A stretch of 64,000 bases of DNA from an uncultured archaeon (GCA_964447525.1 CAYUSU010000001.1:26012-90011); one strand, 5' to 3'. Shown: positions 6,153 through 15,558, counted from the first letter of the stretch. The notes: generated by a model not told the origin, from the sequence alone. Made by a program: numbers and translations.

Positions 6153-6890
6153 TTACTTCTTCCCTTTCCTGCGTTTCCTCTTCTTCGCGATCACCAATGA
6201 GATGACCACAATTATAATAATTATTATCACTGCTATGATCATGTAGTCTTCGATATCCTGAGGGTTTGTTATGCTTTCAACAACGTTATTGATATCATCC
6301 ATACCAATTACTGGTATACCTTCGTTTTCTTCTTGGTTATCTCCCTCCGGAATTGCGTTATCCTCCTCTTCGTTACCCTGTGGTATTTCTCCGACCTGAT
6401 CACCAGCGATAACCGCAGGTTCTCCCGGAAGATCTGATCCTTCTCCTACATCGGATGGAGGGCTCGATGTTCCGTCGACCATCGGGCATTCATTCCCGTC
6501 CTGTGAGGTGAAATATATTATCCTCTTTTCGAGGCCCGCATGTATATCGTCCATGCTGATAAAGAAATCGTATTTTCCGAAAAGAATGGCTGGAATGTAT
6601 CTGTAAATTCCGTATTTCTGCCGGTACTGATCGAATACCTGCTCATTCCCCTGAACGTCGAGATCGTATGTTATTACCATCGTGTTGTTGTATATTTGTG
6701 TCATGTTCTGGATGAATTCATCTATGGTCAGGCAGTTGAGACAGTTCTGTTCGGTGAAATGAATAAAGCATACGTCATTCGTCTCTTGTGACATAATTCC
6801 TGGTGCAATTAAAAGAAAAAATAATATTGGAATCATTACCAAAATCCATTTCATACTTAATTTTTTATTTGGTTTGATATTTATCCCCAT
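6153..6890 (-). CDS. secreted, C-terminally membrane-anchored protein. It has a thioredoxin-fold-like N-domain (CLNC) and an acidic E/D/N/G-rich linker
   Basis: Signal peptide (the likely true start is MKWILVM at 6854), a C-x-x-C motif, an acidic low-complexity region, and a C-terminal TM helix plus KKRKRRKGKK tail. It sits directly downstream of the giant VWA gene. Confidence 0.4.
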   Translation of the reverse strand: MGINIKPNKKLSMKWILVMIPILFFLLIAPGIMSQETNDVCFIHFTEQNCLNCLTIDEFIQNMTQIYNNTMVITYDLDVQGNEQVFDQYRQKYGIYRYIPAILFGKYDFFISMDDIHAGLEKRIIYFTSQDGNECPMVDGTSSPPSDVGEGSDLPGEPAVIAGDQVGEIPQGNEEEDNAIPEGDNQEENEGIPVIGMDDINNVVESITNPQDIEDYMIIAVIIIIIIVVISLVIAKKRKRRKGKK

Positions 6891-9800
6891 ATCCTTATCT
6901 CCAGTTCAGAAGGTCCCCATAGCGACGGTATCTGTGATATGTATTCCGAAACGAAGCTGACTTCATGAGTGATTTCCAGATCTATCGGATTGGACTGGTT
7001 CACTGCATCGTATGGATCAACAACGGTTCCTGATCCGTACGTGTCCGGATTTTGATCGTTAATGAAATCCAGCATGTCCATGAGTCTCATGAACGCATCG
7101 TCTATGCTGTCATTCTGCGGGTCAAAAACGTCCGAAGGATAAGGACCAATCTGAACACTGGTTGATCCGTCCGGTGAGTTGTCGCCGTTGTTGTCGTAAT
7201 AAATGGTGACCGTCGATCCTTTAAGTTTATGAAAAACATCGCTGTATCCCTGTAACCCTATCCCGGTTATTCCCAGTGTATATATTACGCGGGAATCCGG
7301 TGATCCTCCCGTCCCGTTTGTCGGGCCGAGACCTGTTCCTATCCGGACAGAATTGTTCCCTCCGGGTGTTAGGAGATTTACCGGTATGTTAATGATGTAT
7401 GGATCTCCTATGTCCTCGTAATTCCCTGAAAAATTCCCGAGCCAGTAAACGTTGGTCCAGTTCTGGTTGGGCGTGTTGGAAGAATTGATCCATAATCTGT
7501 CTGCCCAGTAATATGAAGAATACGCAGTGATCTTTGAATCCAAAATTCTGGTATTGTTCTGTATGAAGAACCATCCTTCCTTGGTGCCAGTGGCATTATC
7601 GGTTATTGTCGCGTTTCCGGTCGAGTTTTCCAGCCTTGTGGATTCATACGTAAGCGTTATCTCTCCGTAACTCAATGGTTCCGAGATTGGAGTGTATTCA
7701 TACGAAATGTAAGAATCCGGGTATAGCGTATTGTTGGTTTCGACATCTCCGGTTATAACGACGGCCTGTGCCTTGAATGCTATTTCCAGAATGTCCTTGG
7801 CTATCTTCTCGTAAATCTCGACAAGCTCGTCTGAATCATCACTGACATAGAAATTAGAACAATTATCACAGCATGCTATATCCCTAAGAGTGTCTGTGTC
7901 GGCACCTGATCCGAATGCGACGGAATATATACTTATGTTGTACTTGTTGTGCGCTTCGCATGCCTTGTCTATCGCTTCCTGAGAAGGTGTGGAGGCTCCG
8001 TCCTGACAGTTATTACAATCCCCTATCCTCGTGTTGGCGTGCCCGTCGCTCATAACTAACATCGCCTTGAAACGGTCGTAAGGGAAGGATTCGTTGCTCT
8101 CCGTAGTTGTTATCATAACGTTCCGGAAAGACCAATAATTATCGCTTCCAGGTCTTTTGCAGCCGCCGTCTATGCTTGTCCCGGCGTCTTCCATAGTTCC
8201 TGCAGTGAACGTGATGTTGTTTCCCCCTTCGTTCAGCCAGAATGTCGGGAGATCGAAAGTTACGTTCTGCCAGATATTCGTCCCATTCCATTCCTGATGC
8301 CTTATCCTGCCAACAAAATAATCGTTCAGATATACGCAGTTATAATAATACGGATCCACGTTGTTTGCCTCGAACACGATTCTCGCTGCTTTCAGTCTGG
8401 AAGTGTTTATTTCCATGTCCATGGTTACGTTTATCATATAATTGGTTGGTGGAGCGTAGTATGACGAATTCGTTAACCCGATAGAGATGTCATCGAATCT
8501 GAAATATCCCCATTCCGAGCTTTCAGTCCCGAGAATTTTCCCACCTATATCAAGATAATAAAGTCCCGGACCTTCGATCCATTGCGTAAGATTCTGGTAG
8601 AAATTACCGGAGAAATCGTCATCCGGATTGTCCCTCGTATCTATCTCTTCGTCCCCGTCAGATCCGTCATCTCCTGTGTCAAGATCACTTCCAAGATAAT
8701 GATAACCCGAAGTTGGTGAATACCATCGTCCCTTTATCCAGACCTGATCAGAACCCTCAAATGGATTATCGTTCCCATCCCATTCGTAGTCCATCGAAAA
8801 ATATACCCAATCCCCTGCCAAAATGCTTGAATAAACATCATCTGTTATGTTGACTTCGATTCCGTACGCCCCGGAGCAATCATAATCGGAGCATCTATTT
8901 CTTGAAGGAGAACCAGTTCTCATGTCCAGTTCCAATTTACCTCCGGTCACAGGAGCGTAATCCACGTTGTCGTCCCATCCGTACGGACCGACACCGTTCT
9001 GAAGATCCCAGTCCCATCCGTCATCTCCTGCCCCCGGACCGAATGTAGTGAATGTCCAGTTCAGTCCGCTGGTGAAATCGATCGGGTACGGTAGGTCGGT
9101 TGCCAGTTCCCACATGTCAATATAGTTCTTGATAAGGAACCCGCCGGGATAATTGATATATGTTTCCTGATTATCGGAAAACTCGGTCACATTTCTGGTA
9201 AGGTTCTGAAGTTCCCACAATGTTATCCTGACGTCCTTGAAGTTCCAGTCGTCATGGCTGCCGCCGATTTCATTGCAGTCAATCGTTGTCCCTGAAGTAA
9301 GGGTTACTGTATTTATTCCCTGATTGAGCCAATCCTGCTTCAAGTCGAATATACAGTCATGATAACCATCGGAATTGTCTTCTGCCGGATAGCACATCCT
9401 GCCAAGGTATCTACCGTTCAGATAAACACAATTTTTGTAATTCTTGTTGCCGGCGTCAATATCCCTTCCGAACACACTGAGCCTCGCCTTTACGATTTTC
9501 TGTTGATCGAAAGTTATGTTAACATTCACATCGGCGGATCTCGGCTTCCCACCATAATCATCGCCAATATCATACCAAGTCGTATTCACTTCTGATGTCA
9601 TGTTGGTTCCGTGTAGTGTTTGTGTTTCCATCACAAGTTTAGTGGCGGATTCAACTCCGCAGGAAACGCATGTCCATCCGCACCATTCGTTTGCGTAATC
9701 GTCTATTCTTGTCCTCAGGGATTCGTTGTCGTCGGTCATATCTCTGAAAGAGCAGACAGGACTCGCTCTTTTTCCGTAACCTATCATACCCACCCTGTTT

Positions 9801-11182
9801 CCGGTCGTATTCAGTATGGCGTCAAGGAATGCTTTGTTTGATTTCTGGACTATCTTATATCTCCTTTCGTGACAGTCACCCCAAGGATCGCAGATATCCG
9901 GTTCAGCGCAGTTTATATCCACATCACACGAGTCCATGCTTCCCGTTCTGTCTGTTATCAGAACAACATCCGCTTTCTGTCCAAGACCGAAAAGATAGCT
10001 AAGATTCGCCGTACCCAACCTTATCGGAACCGTCCTGTTGCTGATATAATCGATATGTTCTAATCCGGTACCTGAAAAAATGGAAGAATTTATGAAAGAG
10101 TCGTTTATCAATATTTTTTGCTCGCTGGTGTTGGAATCGCTGTGTAATGTCACGTTTCCCATCGTGAAATAAACTGGATAATTACTCTTATAATGAAGAT
10201 ATGCTGAAATATTGTTGAGTGTCCCGGGAACGTGGAAAGATGAATACAGATTTATTAACCCTTCTATTCCAGGAAACCAGTATTTATCGGCGCTCGTGTT
10301 TCCGGTATAAAGGAATCCTGTGAGTTCTGATGTTGTGTAGGTAAATTTTATGTACCCACCCCCTATTGATGAATTTTCGATCATGGTGAAATTGATTTCA
10401 ATTGTGTTTTTCCCCCCAGAGAAGAGAGAGCATATCCCGGGATTAAACGTTGAAGAGCAGACATTCCATTTATCCGCTGAAAAATTACCCTTGGTCTTGT
10501 TGTATGTGCCTGCGGAAATATTGTTGATATGCAGTGAAAAATTATTTCCTACGTTCATTTCCATGTAGACGAACGATACATTCGCATCTGCGGGAAGATC
10601 TATGAATCTCGTTATGTTCCCCTCTCCGACATAACCCCCAAAATAGAGGAAATCGGAAGTCGTCTTTTTTGCCTTGGAAAGATAAACCTTTGCCATGTAA
10701 CCGTCCACTGGTTTCGTTTTCTCGTATCCGGAAACAATAGTGGTCAGCCTTGCGAGGAAGTTATTGACCGGTTGTGTGGATGAATTATATATATTTTCCC
10801 CTCCGAACACGATCTCGTATTCGTGACCAGTTTCGTTCAGTAATGCGTCAAGAATATCTTTCGTTATGTTCCCGGCCTCGGAAACATTTCCTGACGTCCA
10901 AAGCGAACCTATCACGTCCAGTATGGTTCTTCCCATATCATCCTGTTCCAAAACACCTGTTGCGATGTAGTTTTGTATGACCGGAAGGAACTGGACGGAA
11001 GACATAGGCGTTTGTTCAAAAACATATACCAAATCCTTTCCTGTATAATAATATCTCTGGTATCTAAGATCTGGGGAAGAATACGTGTGGAGAAGTGAAA
11101 CCAGGAAAAAACCTACGAGAATCAGTATTGAAACAGCGAATACAGCGTCCATCGAAAGCAGGAAACCCCTATAACCCCTCAT
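6881..11182 (-). CDS. giant (1433 aa) cell-surface protein with a pilin-like class III signal peptide and a VWA (MIDAS) domain; putative pilus-associated adhesin
   Basis: The N-terminus MRGYRG|FLLSMDAVFAVSILILVGFF fits the archaeal prepilin [KR][GA] cleavage-motif pattern. DxSxS MIDAS-like motif (ITDRTGSMDSCD), many Cys pairs and dozens of N-x-S/T sequons. Confidence 0.7.
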   Translation of the reverse strand: MRGYRGFLLSMDAVFAVSILILVGFFLVSLLHTYSSPDLRYQRYYYTGKDLVYVFEQTPMSSVQFLPVIQNYIATGVLEQDDMGRTILDVIGSLWTSGNVSEAGNITKDILDALLNETGHEYEIVFGGENIYNSSTQPVNNFLARLTTIVSGYEKTKPVDGYMAKVYLSKAKKTTSDFLYFGGYVGEGNITRFIDLPADANVSFVYMEMNVGNNFSLHINNISAGTYNKTKGNFSADKWNVCSSTFNPGICSLFSGGKNTIEINFTMIENSSIGGGYIKFTYTTSELTGFLYTGNTSADKYWFPGIEGLINLYSSFHVPGTLNNISAYLHYKSNYPVYFTMGNVTLHSDSNTSEQKILINDSFINSSIFSGTGLEHIDYISNRTVPIRLGTANLSYLFGLGQKADVVLITDRTGSMDSCDVDINCAEPDICDPWGDCHERRYKIVQKSNKAFLDAILNTTGNRVGMIGYGKRASPVCSFRDMTDDNESLRTRIDDYANEWCGWTCVSCGVESATKLVMETQTLHGTNMTSEVNTTWYDIGDDYGGKPRSADVNVNITFDQQKIVKARLSVFGRDIDAGNKNYKNCVYLNGRYLGRMCYPAEDNSDGYHDCIFDLKQDWLNQGINTVTLTSGTTIDCNEIGGSHDDWNFKDVRITLWELQNLTRNVTEFSDNQETYINYPGGFLIKNYIDMWELATDLPYPIDFTSGLNWTFTTFGPGAGDDGWDWDLQNGVGPYGWDDNVDYAPVTGGKLELDMRTGSPSRNRCSDYDCSGAYGIEVNITDDVYSSILAGDWVYFSMDYEWDGNDNPFEGSDQVWIKGRWYSPTSGYHYLGSDLDTGDDGSDGDEEIDTRDNPDDDFSGNFYQNLTQWIEGPGLYYLDIGGKILGTESSEWGYFRFDDISIGLTNSSYYAPPTNYMINVTMDMEINTSRLKAARIVFEANNVDPYYYNCVYLNDYFVGRIRHQEWNGTNIWQNVTFDLPTFWLNEGGNNITFTAGTMEDAGTSIDGGCKRPGSDNYWSFRNVMITTTESNESFPYDRFKAMLVMSDGHANTRIGDCNNCQDGASTPSQEAIDKACEAHNKYNISIYSVAFGSGADTDTLRDIACCDNCSNFYVSDDSDELVEIYEKIAKDILEIAFKAQAVVITGDVETNNTLYPDSYISYEYTPISEPLSYGEITLTYESTRLENSTGNATITDNATGTKEGWFFIQNNTRILDSKITAYSSYYWADRLWINSSNTPNQNWTNVYWLGNFSGNYEDIGDPYIINIPVNLLTPGGNNSVRIGTGLGPTNGTGGSPDSRVIYTLGITGIGLQGYSDVFHKLKGSTVTIYYDNNGDNSPDGSTSVQIGPYPSDVFDPQNDSIDDAFMRLMDMLDFINDQNPDTYGSGTVVDPYDAVNQSNPIDLEITHEVSFVSEYISQIPSLWGPSELEIRIWG

Positions 11183-11279: not shown

Positions 11280-11882
11280 ATGGACTTCAGAAAATTTATA
11301 AAATCGACTTTCGGAAAGGATGTCTTTTCGATCAGCGAGGACGATATAATCAAGGAAAGGGTCCGGGTAGAGAAACAAGTGGAGAACATATCGGACGACA
11401 TCAAGAACATACAGGAAAAGATACAGAAGCTGATGATCGAATCAAAGGGCCAGCCTTCCACCTTGAAAATGCTGAATGTGCAGAAAATCAAGGCTCTCCG
11501 GCTTGAATCCAGAACCAAGCAGATGGAGGCGAATCACTTCATCCAGCAGATGCAGGTTCTTCTTCTTGTGGAGGCCATGAAGCAGAGGGAAAAGGGAGAC
11601 AAAGAATCCAAGATAACCGACGAAATTCTCAACTCTGACATGGACAAACTCAGTGCAGTCCTTCTTGTCACCGACGTCAGGGAGGCCCTTAAAGAGGGAA
11701 GGATTGATCTGGTCAAGGACAAGCTTGGAAGGGTTTTCGGGAAGGAACAACTTTTGGTCGACGACGAATCCCAGGAACTGATGAGCGCAATAGATGATCT
11801 GGAGAAGGTCGATGAGCAGACGGCGATCAAGATGGCCGGTCAGAAGGCAAAGGAACTGGCCGACGAGAGGGTTGACGAATAA
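11280..11882 (+). CDS. ESCRT-III / Snf7-family (CdvB-like) protein
   Basis: About 200 aa, with a basic N-terminal half and an acidic C-terminal half. The core QKIKALRLESRTKQMEANHFIQQMQVLLLVEAMK matches the Snf7 helix-2/3 consensus (..nleq..f.ie.a......v..amk). A GGTGA RBS precedes the ATG at 11280. The longer ORF-track start at 11193 is rejected. Confidence 0.65.
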   Translation: MDFRKFIKSTFGKDVFSISEDDIIKERVRVEKQVENISDDIKNIQEKIQKLMIESKGQPSTLKMLNVQKIKALRLESRTKQMEANHFIQQMQVLLLVEAMKQREKGDKESKITDEILNSDMDKLSAVLLVTDVREALKEGRIDLVKDKLGRVFGKEQLLVDDESQELMSAIDDLEKVDEQTAIKMAGQKAKELADERVDE

Positions 11883-12050
11883 GACCTTCCCAATTCCATT
11901 ATTTTTGATTTTTTTCAGATATTTCAGTCTTGTTATTATAAGTTGAAATAATCTTTGATCATTTTCTTGAAACTTTCGTGGCCTGTCTCAAAGTCATCTG
12001 ACATGAATTCTTCCGGTGTTACCCATTTGTGTTCTGTGAGATTTTCCTCT

Positions 12051-12356
12051 TCATCCACATTTTTTTGTCATATCTATTTCACCGGAAACGTGTTCGCAGA
12101 GGAATGTGGTTATAACAACCTGATCACCATCGTTTTCCCTGAAAAAATACCAATTACCGACAAGTTTCAATACATCCACATCCAGATCAGTCTCTTCTTT
12201 GAATTCCCTCATCAGACAAGACTTGGGATCGCTTCCGTATTTTATCCTTCCACCCGGAAGATCCCATACCGAAAAACCAGAAAGCTTTTGTTTAACTATT
12301 AGGAATTTTCCGTCTTTCATCAGAATTCCCTTTACCGCGGCCTGAACGTTTGTCAT
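12051..12356 (-). CDS. NUDIX hydrolase
   Basis: Nudix box GGRIKYGSDPKSCLMREFKEETDL (GX5EX7REUXEEXGU). The ORF is short (101 aa) and may be truncated. Confidence 0.7.
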   Translation of the reverse strand: MTNVQAAVKGILMKDGKFLIVKQKLSGFSVWDLPGGRIKYGSDPKSCLMREFKEETDLDVDVLKLVGNWYFFRENDGDQVVITTFLCEHVSGEIDMTKKCG

Positions 12357-12413
12357 TTTATTGAATTAGAGTGCAGTTTTTAAAATCTTTGATCAAATTA
12401 TAAACAGGTTATT

Positions 12414-13538
12414 ATGGGAGAAATAAGAGAATCGGTCCTGAAACAGCAGCTCCAGAAGGAGATGGATGAAGCAAAAAAGCTGGATTCCAAGGGCAAGGGA
12501 AAGCAGGCAGCAGTCCATTACCAGAATGCAGCAAACATTTACAGGAGGCTGGCTTACATAGCTCCCAGAGATTATGCAGAGAACTTCTTCACAAATGCTT
12601 CCCAGTATGAGAGTCTTGGTAATATACTGAAAACCACTACCCCGTACACTAGGGCGGAATCCACTGAAATGATCGAGACTATGATAATATCCGAGAAACC
12701 CAAGATAAAATGGGAGGAAATAGGCGGCCTGAGTGAGGTGAAGTCGACGATAAAGGAAGCTATTGTTCTCCCATTCATAAACAACAAGCCGGATTTTGTG
12801 GAAGCTCCCAAAGCCATCCTACTTTACGGTCCGCCCGGAACCGGGAAGACGCTTCTTGCTAAAGCCGCAACTAACACGCTGGAAGCGACGTTTTTCGAGG
12901 CAAGAACATCTACGCTACTTTCGAAATACTTTGGCGAGAGCAGCAAAATAATATCAATGCTTTTTTCAAAGGCGAAAGAGAAACAACCATCGGTAATATT
13001 CATGGACGAATTCGATAGCATAATGGTCAGCAGGGACAAAGATATGAATGAAAGCACCCGTCGCGTGGTCGGGCAGCTTCTTCAGGAGATAGAGGGATTC
13101 GCTTCTACGAGTGATGACAAGATAATACTGATAGCCGCAACCAACAAACCATGGGACTTGGACGATGCAATGATATCGAGATTCCAGAGAAAGATATATG
13201 TTCCTCTGCCGGATCAGGAAGCAAGAAAAGCAATAATAGAGATACACATGAAAGGGGTAACACTCGAAGGGATGACCATCGGTTCACTTTCCGAAAGGAC
13301 GGATGGTTTCTCTGGCAGAGATATAGCGAATCTTTGCAGGGAAGCGGTAATGATAATGATAAGGGAAAAGAACCCGAAGCTTGAGGAATTGACTTCGACG
13401 CAGATAGAGAAATACACAATGAGTCATCGGTCGCTGAACGAGAATGATTTTGAGAAAGCTTTCGAAAAAATCAGACCAAGTGTTGATCCCGATTCTATTC
13501 AGAAATATTCTGAATGGGGAAAACAAATGGGAATGTAA
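12414..13538 (+). CDS. Vps4/CdvC-like AAA+ ATPase with an N-terminal MIT domain
   Basis: N-terminal helical MIT-like region, single AAA module (GPPGTGKT Walker A, IFMDEFD Walker B), Vps4-type motif KPWDLDDAMISRFQRKIYVPLP and a Vps4-like C-terminal tail (YSEWGKQ). Confidence 0.9.
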   Translation: MGEIRESVLKQQLQKEMDEAKKLDSKGKGKQAAVHYQNAANIYRRLAYIAPRDYAENFFTNASQYESLGNILKTTTPYTRAESTEMIETMIISEKPKIKWEEIGGLSEVKSTIKEAIVLPFINNKPDFVEAPKAILLYGPPGTGKTLLAKAATNTLEATFFEARTSTLLSKYFGESSKIISMLFSKAKEKQPSVIFMDEFDSIMVSRDKDMNESTRRVVGQLLQEIEGFASTSDDKIILIAATNKPWDLDDAMISRFQRKIYVPLPDQEARKAIIEIHMKGVTLEGMTIGSLSERTDGFSGRDIANLCREAVMIMIREKNPKLEELTSTQIEKYTMSHRSLNENDFEKAFEKIRPSVDPDSIQKYSEWGKQMGM

Positions 13539-13541
13539 ATT

Positions 13542-15290
13542 ATGAATATTTTTGAGGTAATGGAAGAAGAGAAAAAATACTTTGATAAAGACAAACTTCA
13601 ACACCATCTCGATGATCTTCTGAAAAAGATAAAAAAATCCAGAAGAGATGAAACATTCGAAAGATCAGCCATTCTTTTTTGCGAAGCGGCCAATATTGCT
13701 CATCTTTTGGGAGATTCGAGAGCAACAGAATTCTATATGAGCTCCGCTCAGGAGAATCTCAAAACCAAAAACATATACAACGCAGCATGGGCTTACAGGA
13801 ACGCTGCGCTGGTTTCTTTCGAAAACGGTGATTATACCAATGCAATTTCATTCTCGCAAAAATCGGTAGAACTATTCGAAAAATCTCATACGCAATATGG
13901 ACTTGAATGGTGCTTCAAACTTATTGGGGAATCATTCGAAAAGAGCGGTAAAACAGGGGAAGCAATAAAATACTATAACAAATCCCTTGAAATACAAAAA
14001 GACGAGGAAATCGAAGAAAAGATCAAACACCTCATGAAAAAAACACCTGAAATTTCAGTTAGTCATAATTCTGATAAAGATTCAGTCAAGAAAAACGGAA
14101 ATGCCGAATTCCGGCTGGAAATCAGGAACCTTTCTAATGATATCATAAAGGAAATAAAAGCAGTGGGAGCCGATTCTAAAATAATAGATTCGTTCCAGAA
14201 TCTGGGTCCTAACGAGATACACATTTTCAAAAAAACAGTAAAGACCGGCAATAATTCCGCCTCTTCACCGTTCCATCTGGTAGAATGGGATACCGTTCAG
14301 GGAGATAGATTCGAAAGAGAGATTGAACCAATCGAGCTGAAGATCAAACCAAATATCGGAATGAACGCTTATTTCCGCGAGAAACCGCAAGTCGGTAAGC
14401 AGTCTTTTTTCGTTGTGTTTGTGAGGAACGACTCCGGTTCCGATATAACGAATGTTCGCCTTCGTATGGATTTCCCGGTTGAAGTCAAGGTGAAACCAGT
14501 TACCGGGTACACTTTCGAAAAAATTCAGATCGGTGAGGAGAAAGGATTCGTTTTCAAGATCCTTCCCACCGCTCTGGAAAAGGTAACCCTGAAACCTTCC
14601 GTGACCTACGATTATAATGGGAAGAGTTTTGACGAGACGATGGAACCATTTTCGATGAATGATACACTCGAATTACCGGAAGATAAAACCATTTCCAATG
14701 ATACTTCCAAAATACTTGACAACACAATGCTTGAAAAAATGAATGATATCCGCGAGGAGAAGAGATTCATTAATTCCAGATTTGAACCTTTTCAGATGAA
14801 TGAAATAGAGTTCATAGAATCTCAAAAGGAAATGGCATCCGTTAACAAGGGATTTTCACTAAAAAATACTAGTATTAATGAGACATTCTCTTTGATAAAG
14901 GAAGAACTGAAGGACCTTCATATAGTATCGGAAAGAGAGAATGAAAATTCCTCTTTGTTGTGTTATTCATGCAAGACCAGAGGAGAAGGGGAGAAATATC
15001 TACTTAAAATTGTTATCAAAGATGAGAAAAATATAGTGTTCGTTGTTTCAAGAATGTATTCGGACAAAGATGATGGTCTGGATGATTTGCTTTCGAAAAT
15101 ATCCAACATACTGGAACATACGATAACTGCAATGACCTTCGCAACCGAAGTTCAGAACGTTGAGGTCAATGAGACAATAAATATCATAGACTCCGTTGTA
15201 CAACGATCAAAGATAGGTGGGGATGAAGATAAAACGGAAAATAAAAAAATAAAATTAAAGGATTCGGTGGTACAGAAGACCGATCTGTGA
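13542..15290 (+). CDS. 582-aa protein with N-terminal TPR/MIT-like helical repeats, a central beta-rich region and a C-terminal acidic part. Function unknown; coupled to the Vps4 gene
   Basis: It starts 4 nt after the Vps4 stop. TPR-like helices at residues ~40-150 (AAWAYRNAALVSFENGDYTNAISFSQKSVELFEK...). Confidence 0.6.
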   Translation: MNIFEVMEEEKKYFDKDKLQHHLDDLLKKIKKSRRDETFERSAILFCEAANIAHLLGDSRATEFYMSSAQENLKTKNIYNAAWAYRNAALVSFENGDYTNAISFSQKSVELFEKSHTQYGLEWCFKLIGESFEKSGKTGEAIKYYNKSLEIQKDEEIEEKIKHLMKKTPEISVSHNSDKDSVKKNGNAEFRLEIRNLSNDIIKEIKAVGADSKIIDSFQNLGPNEIHIFKKTVKTGNNSASSPFHLVEWDTVQGDRFEREIEPIELKIKPNIGMNAYFREKPQVGKQSFFVVFVRNDSGSDITNVRLRMDFPVEVKVKPVTGYTFEKIQIGEEKGFVFKILPTALEKVTLKPSVTYDYNGKSFDETMEPFSMNDTLELPEDKTISNDTSKILDNTMLEKMNDIREEKRFINSRFEPFQMNEIEFIESQKEMASVNKGFSLKNTSINETFSLIKEELKDLHIVSERENENSSLLCYSCKTRGEGEKYLLKIVIKDEKNIVFVVSRMYSDKDDGLDDLLSKISNILEHTITAMTFATEVQNVEVNETINIIDSVVQRSKIGGDEDKTENKKIKLKDSVVQKTDL

Positions 15291-15291
15291 C

Positions 15292-15558
15292 CTATTTCTT
15301 TTTCTTCTTGGGCTTTTCTGGTTCCTCTTCGAATTCCTTGCTCATTTTTAGTTCGTCGGCCTCTAGCCATACCACTAGCAATCCCACCAGTATAAGGAGT
15401 ATTGGGATTATTCCCGTGAGCACTATTACAAAGTTATCCAGCCAGTTGATACCGAGGGTTCCCGCGGTTCCTGTTATTGGATATACTGAGTCAACGAAGA
15501 GCCCTAACCCGATCAAAACCAGGATAAGCCCGACAATAATTTTTATTGCTGCATGCAT
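15292..15558 (-). CDS. small membrane protein (2 TM) with an acidic/lysine-rich tail
   Basis: Hydrophobic helices followed by EEEPEKPKKKKK. Confidence 0.4.
   Translation of the reverse strand: MHAAIKIIVGLILVLIGLGLFVDSVYPITGTAGTLGINWLDNFVIVLTGIIPILLILVGLLVVWLEADELKMSKEFEEEPEKPKKKKK

Follow-up and report, generated by a model that had tools for sequence, protein, structure and literature searches.

Do archaea of the DPANN group possess machinery related to ESCRT, the complexes for endosomal sorting that are required for transport? The question is raised by a locus in a 64,000-nucleotide stretch of DNA from an uncultured archaeon (GCA_964447525.1 CAYUSU010000001.1:26012-90011; this whole stretch, numbered from its first letter, is called the window below). 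A 2025 review reports ESCRT-III homologues in every major lineage of archaea but DPANN (PMC7619361), and a 2021 review describes ESCRT proteins as absent in DPANN (PMC10117752). A 2024 survey lists a few DPANN Vps4 proteins only. It has no entry for Aenigmatarchaeota, its text and tables as examined name no ESCRT-III from DPANN, and an adaptin-like component from DPANN is not listed either (PMC10936438). Our literature search found no paper linking Aenigmatarchaeota to Vps4 or ESCRT. We propose, with a probability of roughly 0.6, that the locus described here encodes, in an Aenigmatarchaeota (DPANN) archaeon, a compact module of the ESCRT type for membrane remodelling or protein sorting. It comprises the following genes, the last of them a probable component.

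11280..11882, + strand: E3-like, an ESCRT-III-like helical-hairpin protein of 200 residues (ATG start backed by 29 aligned homologues)
12414..13538, + strand: Vps4-type MIT-AAA ATPase of 374 residues (Pfam, NCBIfam, motifs)
13542..15290, + strand: putative adaptor of 582 residues, TPR + Ig + Ig + α/β (platform-like) (AlphaFold2 model, Foldseek)
15292..15558, − strand: TM88, a small membrane protein of 88 residues with two transmembrane (TM) segments (two hydrophobic segments, conservation)

The locus and its host

The four open reading frames (ORFs) that the earlier note, a first reading of this DNA, had placed on the two strands, among them a NUDIX gene described below, are all present at their coordinates. 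Homologues of E3-like, the ATPase and the adaptor carry names such as 'Candidatus Aenigmarchaeota archaeon', and the flanking genes have archaeal housekeeping functions: ribosomal protein L15e, a gene of the amino-acid-kinase family that is taken for the archaeal UMP kinase, a gene like ABCE1/RLI, and CutA and arginyl-tRNA synthetase (ArgRS), the last two assigned via orthologues in L001 (comparison loci are denoted by L numbers). It follows that the window is a piece of chromosome from an Aenigmatarchaeota (DPANN) metagenome-assembled genome. Scans for sigma-70 promoters and terminators were uninformative, the host being an archaeon.

Among 13 species-level Aenigmatarchaeota genomes, E3-like and the ATPase are 58–95% identical and the adaptor 34–79% identical; all three are real conserved genes. 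The adaptor gene starts 3 nucleotides past the ATPase stop codon, and the two genes overlap by 4 nucleotides in L021; to judge from this spacing, they are probably co-transcribed.

Gene linkage across genomes

Gene context is the strongest evidence for an ESCRT-type reading. The order E3-like, Vps4, TPR adaptor and TM88 (− strand) recurs in 12 of the 12 species-level Aenigmatarchaeota loci that include upstream sequence, as well as in many metagenome loci. The full block, which runs from a giant vWA gene (− strand) through E3-like, Vps4, the TPR protein and TM88 (− strand) to L15e and UMP kinase, is found in 13 species-representative genomes. Block order alone could be synteny, but its units survive relocation. 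In L021 (GCA_016932735), the ATPase, the 582-residue TPR protein and the small TM gene lie amid unrelated genes, and in L020, E3-like and the ATPase stand together in yet another context. The 582-residue gene is thus conserved directly after the ATPase gene, as the coupling proposed in the earlier note had demanded, even in wholly different surroundings. An exception to adjacency is the E3-like gene of GCA_016932735, which lies on another contig (L003), apart from the ATPase of L021.

The association also persists across deep divergence. At loci such as L023, L025, L064, L069, L071, L081, L093 and L098, E3-like relatives of ~20% identity are encoded directly upstream of AAA genes with MIT-like N-termini and Vps4_C. 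In L028, a distant E3-like relative and a paralogue sit between two Vps4-like AAA genes, one of which has a weak Pfam MIT match, beside a gene for a PP2C phosphatase; a PP2C accessory has been described for 'Main'-clade archaeal ESCRT loci. E3-like is, like ESCRT-III genes, adjacent to and typically upstream of a Vps4 gene.

The adaptor family shows the same company. A hidden Markov model (HMM) of the family found its platform domain and twin C-terminal motif in L029, beside a distant E3-like gene (independent E-value, i-E=6.7e-39), as well as further homologues in dozens of loci from metagenomes; in several of these, E3-like and AAA genes are also present. In L101, a 189-residue protein matching Snf7 (E=0.0069 over nearly the whole model) is followed by Vps4, a protein with a weak C-terminal winged helix-turn-helix match, and an adaptor homologue (E=3e-29). 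Because a weakly Snf7-positive protein stands first in this order, E3-like occupies the ESCRT-III position. The adaptor family is encoded in Vps4/ESCRT-III neighbourhoods.

A Vps4-type ATPase with a MIT-like domain

The product of 12414..13538 had been called an unmistakable Vps4, and a Vps4-type assignment is supported. The protein has one AAA cassette (Pfam AAA, 1.2e-40), AAA_lid_3 (1.2e-11) and Vps4_C (6.7e-8), and CdvC is its top NCBIfam match, aligned over residues 8–371 of 374 with 240.4 bits. Its catalytic motifs are Walker A GPPGTGKT, Walker B VIFMDE and pore loop KYFGE, and the second region of homology (SRH), which lies in the stretch KPWDLDDAMISRFQRKIYVPLP, carries a single Arg (SRF). 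The motifs of relatives are similar, with a pore loop KY[FY]GE and slight variation in Walker B and pore-loop residues. By its motifs the protein has the single-cassette layout of Vps4/CdvC ATPases, with intact Walker A and B, pore loop, SRH and Vps4_C. An end-to-end alignment of its last 113 residues with katanin, spastin and fidgetin-like 1 places it in the 'meiotic' AAA clade, to which Vps4 belongs. Two regions outside the AAA core are informative.

12414..12653, + strand: MIT-like three-helix N-terminal domain, residues ~1–80 (profile versus PDB sequences)
13371..13532, + strand: Vps4_C C-terminal helix region, residues 320–373 (Pfam PF09336, 6.7e-8)

The MIT domain, also part of the first description, is borne out weakly. 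When a family profile of ATPase residues 1–90 was compared with PDB sequences, the best natural matches were the MIT domains of Sulfolobus Vps4/CdvC (2v6y, E=0.002; 4lcb, 0.013; 2w2u, 0.016), with all three helices aligned, and those of human and mouse VPS4B came next (0.07–0.2). This weak but specific similarity points to an N-terminal MIT domain like that of Vps4/CdvC ATPases, which Makarova et al. 2024 delimit by a MIT domain or by neighbouring ESCRT genes (PMC10936438). We conclude that the protein is a Vps4-type MIT-AAA ATPase, not a CdvC orthologue.

In distant relatives, a Vps4-like AAA region carries, fused to its C-terminus, a DAC domain (diadenylate cyclase, PF02457; 1e-16 to 2e-15), as in L071:3800-5605, L077:1839-3551 and two further loci (L081, L087). 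The fusion suggests a link of the Vps4-like ATPase to c-di-AMP signalling.

Architecture of the E3-like protein

E3-like belongs to a narrow family, for which an exhaustive profile search of 1.84e9 cluster representatives returned 25 proteins at E<=0.001; the 29 aligned homologues all begin MDFKKFI.... The AlphaFold2 model has a mean predicted local distance difference test score (pLDDT) of 70 and consists of a short N-terminal helix, a long hairpin of helices 20–54 and 60–105 (pLDDT 80–94), a poorly predicted middle (helix 112–152, low confidence) and two further helices, 162–175 and 179–195 (pLDDT 84–89). As modelled, the protein shares the ESCRT-III architecture (~200–240 residues, a long α1–α2 hairpin and shorter helices), a fold that alone is not diagnostic. 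Its conserved segments are as follows.

11280..11330, + strand: N-terminal basic amphipathic segment MDFRKFIKSTFGKDVFS, candidate membrane-binding helix (alignments, hydrophobic moment)
11337..11594, + strand: predicted α1/α2 hairpin, residues 20–105 (AlphaFold2, pLDDT 80–94)
11760..11864, + strand: conserved acidic C-terminal helices, residues 161–195, candidate MIT-interacting motif (alignment, pLDDT 84–89)

The N-terminal segment follows the consensus MDFxKFIKxxFGK, in which F11 and G12 are nearly invariant, and its hydrophobic moment is about 0.5; such a segment may bind membranes. At the hairpin turn, G57 and K63 do not vary even among relatives of 20% identity. The C-terminal helices read DxESQELMxAIxDLExVDEETA..., with D161, E163, L174, E175, V177, D178, T181 and A182 invariant in the alignment. 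L167, I171 and L174 have the i, i+4, i+7 spacing of a type 1 MIT-interacting motif (MIM1); the MIM1 Arg and the terminal basic residue are lacking. By its sequence, this highly conserved, acidic and amphipathic helix is a candidate for binding the MIT domain. The net charge is +5 in residues 1–105 and −11 in residues 106–200, and the family means are +6.3 and −12.9, so that the basic-N/acidic-C layout proposed at the outset is real. Its polarity is that of Snf7, CHMP3 and CHMP1B, and its magnitude lies below most of their half-charges.

E3-like paralogue pairs exist, as in ESCRT-III systems: the paralogue in L028 (L028:3976-4560; E=3e-11) has a hydrophobic N-terminal segment, MIAAALGVIAVYKMI, and is arranged in tandem with a standard member.

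Profile–profile comparison with ESCRT-III

For a more sensitive comparison by hhalign, the reference consisted of six eukaryotic ESCRT-III sequences, each verified as Snf7 by Pfam (1e-16 to 1e-58). The E3-like family aligned with them at a local score of 23.3 and a global score of 20.5, with collinearity across 195 columns. The paired elements are the N-terminal motifs (that of E3-like with the MxxLFG N-terminus of ESCRT-III), α1, the KG turn, and the DxDKL segment of E3-like with the DIDKV start of ESCRT-III α4. These scores were not reached in any of 60 shuffles of all columns or in any of 120 shuffles confined to blocks of 12 or 25 columns, and the reversed ESCRT-III reference scored 16.5 and 4.6 (local and global).

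The test has low power, as the known homologues ESCRT-III and PspA scored just 14.1 and 6.6. A positive control, the eukaryotic ESCRT-III profile against the archaeal, weakly Snf7-positive protein of L101, gave 29.9 and 25.5 with a probability of 27–33%. Against the reference with the L101 protein added, the E3-like family scored 26.0 and 24.7, at a probability of 8% (local) to 29% (global). The similarity between E3-like and ESCRT-III thus appears weak, above its matched controls and near the size of a true remote pair. It is from this weak collinear signal, together with architecture and gene context, that we infer an ESCRT-III identity for E3-like; the chance that the 200-residue protein is a true ESCRT-III homologue seems to us a little under one half.

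A predicted appendage-like module in the adaptor

The TPR helices and β-rich middle that had been read from the 582-residue protein are both recovered, by Pfam (TPR_12, 1.9e-11) and by two β-sandwiches in the structural model, and the model adds a third folded domain and a conserved tail.

13587..14042, + strand: TPR domain, residues 16–167 (Pfam TPR_12 1.9e-11, SNAP 2.4e-7)
14052..14639, + strand: two Ig-like β-sandwich domains, residues 171–269 and 272–366 (DSSP of the model, faint Pfam DUF11)
14721..15140, + strand: α/β 'platform'-like domain, residues 394–533 (model, pLDDT 76–91)
15189..15281, + strand: twin C-terminal motif, DSVVQRS (550–556) and DSVVQKT (574–580), in a disordered tail (pLDDT below 35)

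The Pfam matches in residues 33–177 comprise TPR_8, TPR_1 and TPR_2 in addition to TPR_12 and SNAP; in the PDB, consensus TPR structures match the protein up to 3.8e-27, and the TPR2A domain of Hop/STI1 is matched as well. A homologue search gave five orthologues amid generic TPR proteins, and further orthologues were taken from the loci. The AlphaFold2 model (pLDDT 78), built from five sequences, contains eight TPR-type helices (16–167), two β-sandwiches, an α/β domain and a disordered tail. The platform-like domain begins with a pair of helices and a short strand, continues into a β region of five strands that one helix interrupts, and closes with a long C-terminal helix. No other part of the adaptor family is conserved as widely: it is found in L029 (i-E=6.7e-39) and in many metagenome loci.

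A Foldseek search of the model against the PDB returned adaptin or COPI appendage ('ear') domains as all of its first 10 matches (3e-10 to 5e-8), among them γ-COP (9qpq_H, 3e-10), the AP2 α ear (2e-9) and AP2 β2 (1.5e-8). COPI γ (1r4x, 1.5e-7) followed at rank 14 and transglutaminase C-terminal Ig barrels further down. The appendage matches span ~265 columns over ~240-residue targets; Foldseek gave no query ranges, and the matched region is taken to be the sandwich and platform. In the model, the C-terminal two thirds of the adaptor form an adaptin-appendage-like module, with an Ig-like sandwich and an α/β platform as in the AP2 and COPI appendages. The earlier note had suggested a lineage-specific adaptor; its TPR and β domains are confirmed, but the protein is not merely lineage-specific, as the appendage-like family also occurs outside Aenigmatarchaeota in ESCRT-type loci.

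The twin DSVVQR[ST] motif is invariant in 13 orthologues, occurring in every full-length one and in none of the ~170-residue short forms that keep the TPR part alone (L005, L006, L008, L015). Its two copies take the forms NIIDSVVQR[ST]..G and [DA]SVVQ[RK]T. It is also kept in a distant clade (L029:1-1005), in which identity over the remainder of the protein is ~30% and a Zn ribbon follows the motif. No known motif class was identified for it.

TM88, which has no Pfam family, is 68–95% identical in nearly all examined Aenigmatarchaeota loci; it is missing in L020 and L022 and in certain divergent or truncated loci. It has a charged C-terminal tail, and its gene is convergent to the adaptor gene at a distance of 1 nucleotide. 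The two genes stand tail to tail in the unrelated context of L021 too, and TM88 is a probable fourth component of the module. TM88 and the adaptor weakly match consecutively numbered PADLOC models (PDLC01168 and PDLC01169), probably through TM and TPR composition effects; the pairing is curious.

A working model

From these features we infer how the module may work. E3-like would be a very divergent ESCRT-III-like subunit whose basic N-terminal amphipathic helix and hairpin bind the membrane and polymerise, and its acidic C-terminal helices would serve both for autoinhibition and as a handle for the ATPase. The MIT-AAA ATPase would grip this C-terminal region via its MIT domain and unfold or extract subunits through its pore, thereby turning over the polymer. 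The adaptor could act as a hub through its TPR domain, its appendage-like Ig and platform module and its twin DSVVQR[ST] tail. In eukaryotic coats, the appendage Ig and platform domains provide a surface that binds peptide motifs. The adaptor may accordingly be imagined to link cargo or partners, possibly including the two-TM protein, to the polymer and ATPase pair. As to the process served, vesicle or protein sorting or membrane repair and maintenance is more likely than division, because DPANN archaea usually keep FtsZ.

Counter-evidence and alternative explanations

Several observations weigh against an ESCRT-type module. The 'Snf7 core' reported for E3-like in the earlier note could not be detected. 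Neither Pfam nor NCBIfam has a Snf7 or PspA match for E3-like, the protein and its family profile have none among PDB sequences, and 38 family members scanned singly have none at E<=10; the most distant members are no different. An HMM derived from eukaryotic ESCRT-III detected no such gene either, whether in the window or in the fetched loci. Foldseek of the E3-like model, whose pLDDT is only 70, against the PDB returned designed helical bundles and non-significant matches only, with CHMP2A–CHMP3 at rank 17 (E=1.6). Similar hairpins with a charge gradient can arise convergently. In the profile comparison, the probability of E3-like against the six eukaryotic sequences is low (3.5–11.5%), the single ESCRT-III sequence of L101 shows no similarity to E3-like, and the block shuffles, which kept the charge gradient, destroyed heptad periodicity.

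The other components have their own weak points. The ATPase lies far below the NCBIfam equivalog cut-off for CdvC (240.4 versus 650 bits), the Pfam MIT model is unmatched in it and in 120 orthologues, and its MIT similarity is marginal (E=0.002). The appendage matches of the adaptor have a high root-mean-square deviation (~15 Å) and low TM-scores; the sandwich and platform sub-domains are therefore oriented differently, and a generic Ig fold may lie behind part of the signal. Linkage, too, is incomplete: the ATPase stands alone in L022 with no partner genes, L020 is without the adaptor, four lineages keep just the TPR part of the adaptor (~170 residues), and neither an ATPase nor an E3-like gene lies near some divergent homologues of the adaptor (L050, L052, L055, L062). 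The opposite-strand genes inserted between E3-like and the ATPase speak against any obligatory co-transcription of the two.

The rival explanation that survives best, unlikely though it seems to us, holds that the MIT-AAA ATPase and the TPR adaptor are a remodelling or unfoldase pair, analogous to NSF–SNAP or to a chaperone with its TPR co-chaperone. Its client would be E3-like, a coiled-coil protein that is not ESCRT-III and resembles it by convergence. The missing Snf7/PspA profile match in every family member and the lack of a significant structural match for the E3-like model would then be expected. The adaptor TPR domain does match Pfam SNAP (2.4e-7) and, in the PDB, Hop/STI1 TPR2A, and the ATPase C-terminal region matches katanin, spastin and fidgetin as that of any meiotic-clade member would. 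What speaks for ESCRT-III instead is the collinear similarity, which lies above every shuffle and above the reversed control and has a size like that of the positive control, together with the basic amphipathic N-terminus and the ESCRT-III-like charge polarity of E3-like. The adaptor family, moreover, is also found beside a weakly Snf7-positive gene at the equivalent position (L101), and the appendage-like module and the two-TM neighbour point to membrane or cargo biology.

Far less probable is that the clustering is synteny inherited in a narrow lineage beside housekeeping genes (L15e, UMP kinase, ArgRS), with no functional coupling. The whole block, L15e and UMP kinase included, is indeed syntenic in 13 Aenigmatarchaeota genomes, unrelated genes (NUDIX, a methyltransferase-like 201-residue ORF, GNAT) are inserted within the cluster, and the ATPase is alone in L022. 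Yet pairs or triads persist in the unrelated contexts of L020 and L021, units persist where the 200-residue protein is ~20% identical, and the gap between ATPase and adaptor genes is 3 nucleotides, or a 4-nucleotide overlap in L021. Since linkage survives relocation and deep divergence, this explanation is largely refuted.

Least probable of all, an anti-virus defence system in which an IetA/TRIP13-like AAA ATPase acts with TPR and TM effectors was rejected, as its PADLOC matches are limited to the generic AAA core (IetA, 8e-45; TRIP13, 2e-20), to TPRs (adaptor to PDLC01169 'TPR', 5.5e-4) or to TM helices (TM88 to PDLC01168 'CARF, 2 TMs', 1.4e-4), the locus has no IetS protease or CARF domain, and its core-genome synteny by ribosomal and tRNA-synthetase genes at 58–95% identity is unlike a defence island.

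We therefore retain the compact ESCRT-type module as our preferred reading. If it is correct, ESCRT-type machinery with adaptin-like adaptors extends to genome-reduced symbiotic archaea, and an ancient protein-sorting role of ESCRT gains support. The locus would offer a minimal four-gene set for studying how appendage-type adaptors couple to ESCRT-III and Vps4, and a ~200-residue 'hypothetical' family would be flagged as a likely polymer subunit. A stronger version, which we put forward tentatively and at slightly less than even odds, is that E3-like represents an unrecognised, ultra-divergent ESCRT-III branch that forms a functional ESCRT sorting machine with MIT-Vps4 and an appendage-like adaptor in DPANN and other uncultivated archaeal lineages. 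Such a branch would close the 'DPANN gap' and push the pairing of ESCRT with adaptin-like adaptors towards the last archaeal common ancestor.

Neighbouring and inserted genes

Two further genes of the window flank or interrupt the module.

11935..12356 (ORF 12051..12356), − strand: NUDIX hydrolase gene, frameshifted (Pfam NUDIX, 9.5e-15)
6881..11182, − strand: vWA protein of 1433 residues (vWA domain, 3e-7)

A NUDIX gene does lie on the opposite strand between E3-like and Vps4, as first described, but not as an intact ORF. A frameshift near codon ~98 puts the final ~40 residues (DEEENLTEHKWVTPEEFMSDDFETGHESFKKMIKDYFNL) into a different frame, and the orthologue in L004 is intact at 139 residues. 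The gene is either a pseudogene or the product of an assembly error. Among the Aenigmatarchaeota loci it occurs only in the window and in its closest relative, L004; lineage-restricted and frameshifted, it was rejected as a module component and is a passenger insertion. The spacers of the module (11883..12413 in the window) repeatedly host unrelated genes. An opposite-strand ORF of 201 residues, methyltransferase-like (SAM-dependent) by eye, lies between E3-like and the ATPase in L009 (L009:5066-5671), and in L005 (L005:4979-5533) a same-strand GNAT gene separates the ATPase gene from the short TPR gene.

The vWA gene is conserved in divergent orientation upstream of E3-like in the Aenigmatarchaeota loci that have E3-like, the ATPase and upstream sequence, with a partial match in L020. 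The N-terminus of its 1433-residue product resembles an archaeal pilin-type signal (RG|F, then a hydrophobic stretch). In the distant clade, proteins of ~195 and ~133 residues are conserved between the adaptor and E3-like (L069:9135-9722, − strand, and L069:8568-8990, + strand; also L029, L030 and L098). The ~195-residue protein is winged-helix-like by eye and has weak Pfam matches only (HVO_A0261_N, 0.0018; Replic_Relax, 0.0047). It recalls the winged-helix (wH) proteins that other archaeal systems encode upstream of ESCRT-III; no counterpart was seen in the window locus.

Comparison with known systems

The closest parallels come from the 2024 survey (PMC10936438). The Meth_adaptin system of Methanosarcinales, for example Methanosalsum zhilinae, has the same order of a small gene at the ESCRT-III position, a Vps4-type ATPase and an appendage-like (Ig + platform) protein. 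There, HHpred of arCOG15284, the 'adaptin appendage, ESCRT system component', found AP-2 β and coatomer appendages (Makarova et al. 2024, PMC10936438), structures of the kind that the model of our 582-residue protein matches. The metagenomic locus of the L101 type, with its clear homologue of that protein (E=3e-29), mirrors the Methanosalsum arrangement, and the Zn-ribbon appendage proteins in distant relatives of the present system are like the one described for WP_013898571. By contrast, the protein at the ESCRT-III position here is unrecognisable as Snf7 or arCOG00454, a TPR domain is joined to the appendage module on its N-terminal side, and a conserved two-TM mini-protein is attached. The present locus has no coiled-coil/wH, SPFH, GOLD or ProX genes. 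Its host belongs to DPANN, of which the arCOG15284 list has no entry (PMC10936438).

In the Halo_adaptin system of Halobacteria, according to the same survey (PMC10936438), the upstream 'derived' ESCRT-III is likewise weak (PspA, HHpred probability 33) and called largely by position, and Ig-like adaptin-related proteins are likewise encoded beside the ATPase. Their ATPase, however, is without MIT and has VAT-N, whereas the ATPase here keeps a MIT-like domain, and the loci of that system, which are much larger, also include wH proteins, WD40/PQQ fusions and a CetZ-like gene.

With the CdvABC system of TACK archaea the locus shares a MIT-AAA ATPase of ~370 residues with a Vps4_C helix, for which CdvC is the top NCBIfam model, and an upstream partner gene for a ~200-residue helical protein. 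It differs in having no CdvA/PRC-barrel gene (none was evident among the scanned genes of the locus, as the earlier note had also found) and in a partner without a Snf7 signature or wH extension. The ATPase scores 240 bits against the 650-bit CdvC cut-off. A division role is not indicated. The thaumarchaeal arCOG08707 proteins, as the same survey presents them, also combine the lack of detectable similarity with a modelled helical hairpin and a position directly upstream of cdvC (PMC10936438). They accompany bona fide CdvB genes, whereas here no recognisable ESCRT-III is found within the window.

NSF and α-SNAP offer a functional analogy, an AAA ATPase with an all-helical, TPR-like adaptor, to which the Pfam SNAP match of residues 33–177 (2.4e-7) corresponds. 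NSF differs in its N-domain and in having two AAA cassettes, and as TPR families cross-match readily, no homology is claimed. Set against adaptin-type ESCRT systems, what is new in the Aenigmatarchaeota locus is the non-Snf7 protein at the ESCRT-III position, the TPR fusion, the twin motif, the TM mini-protein, the minimal gene set and the DPANN host.

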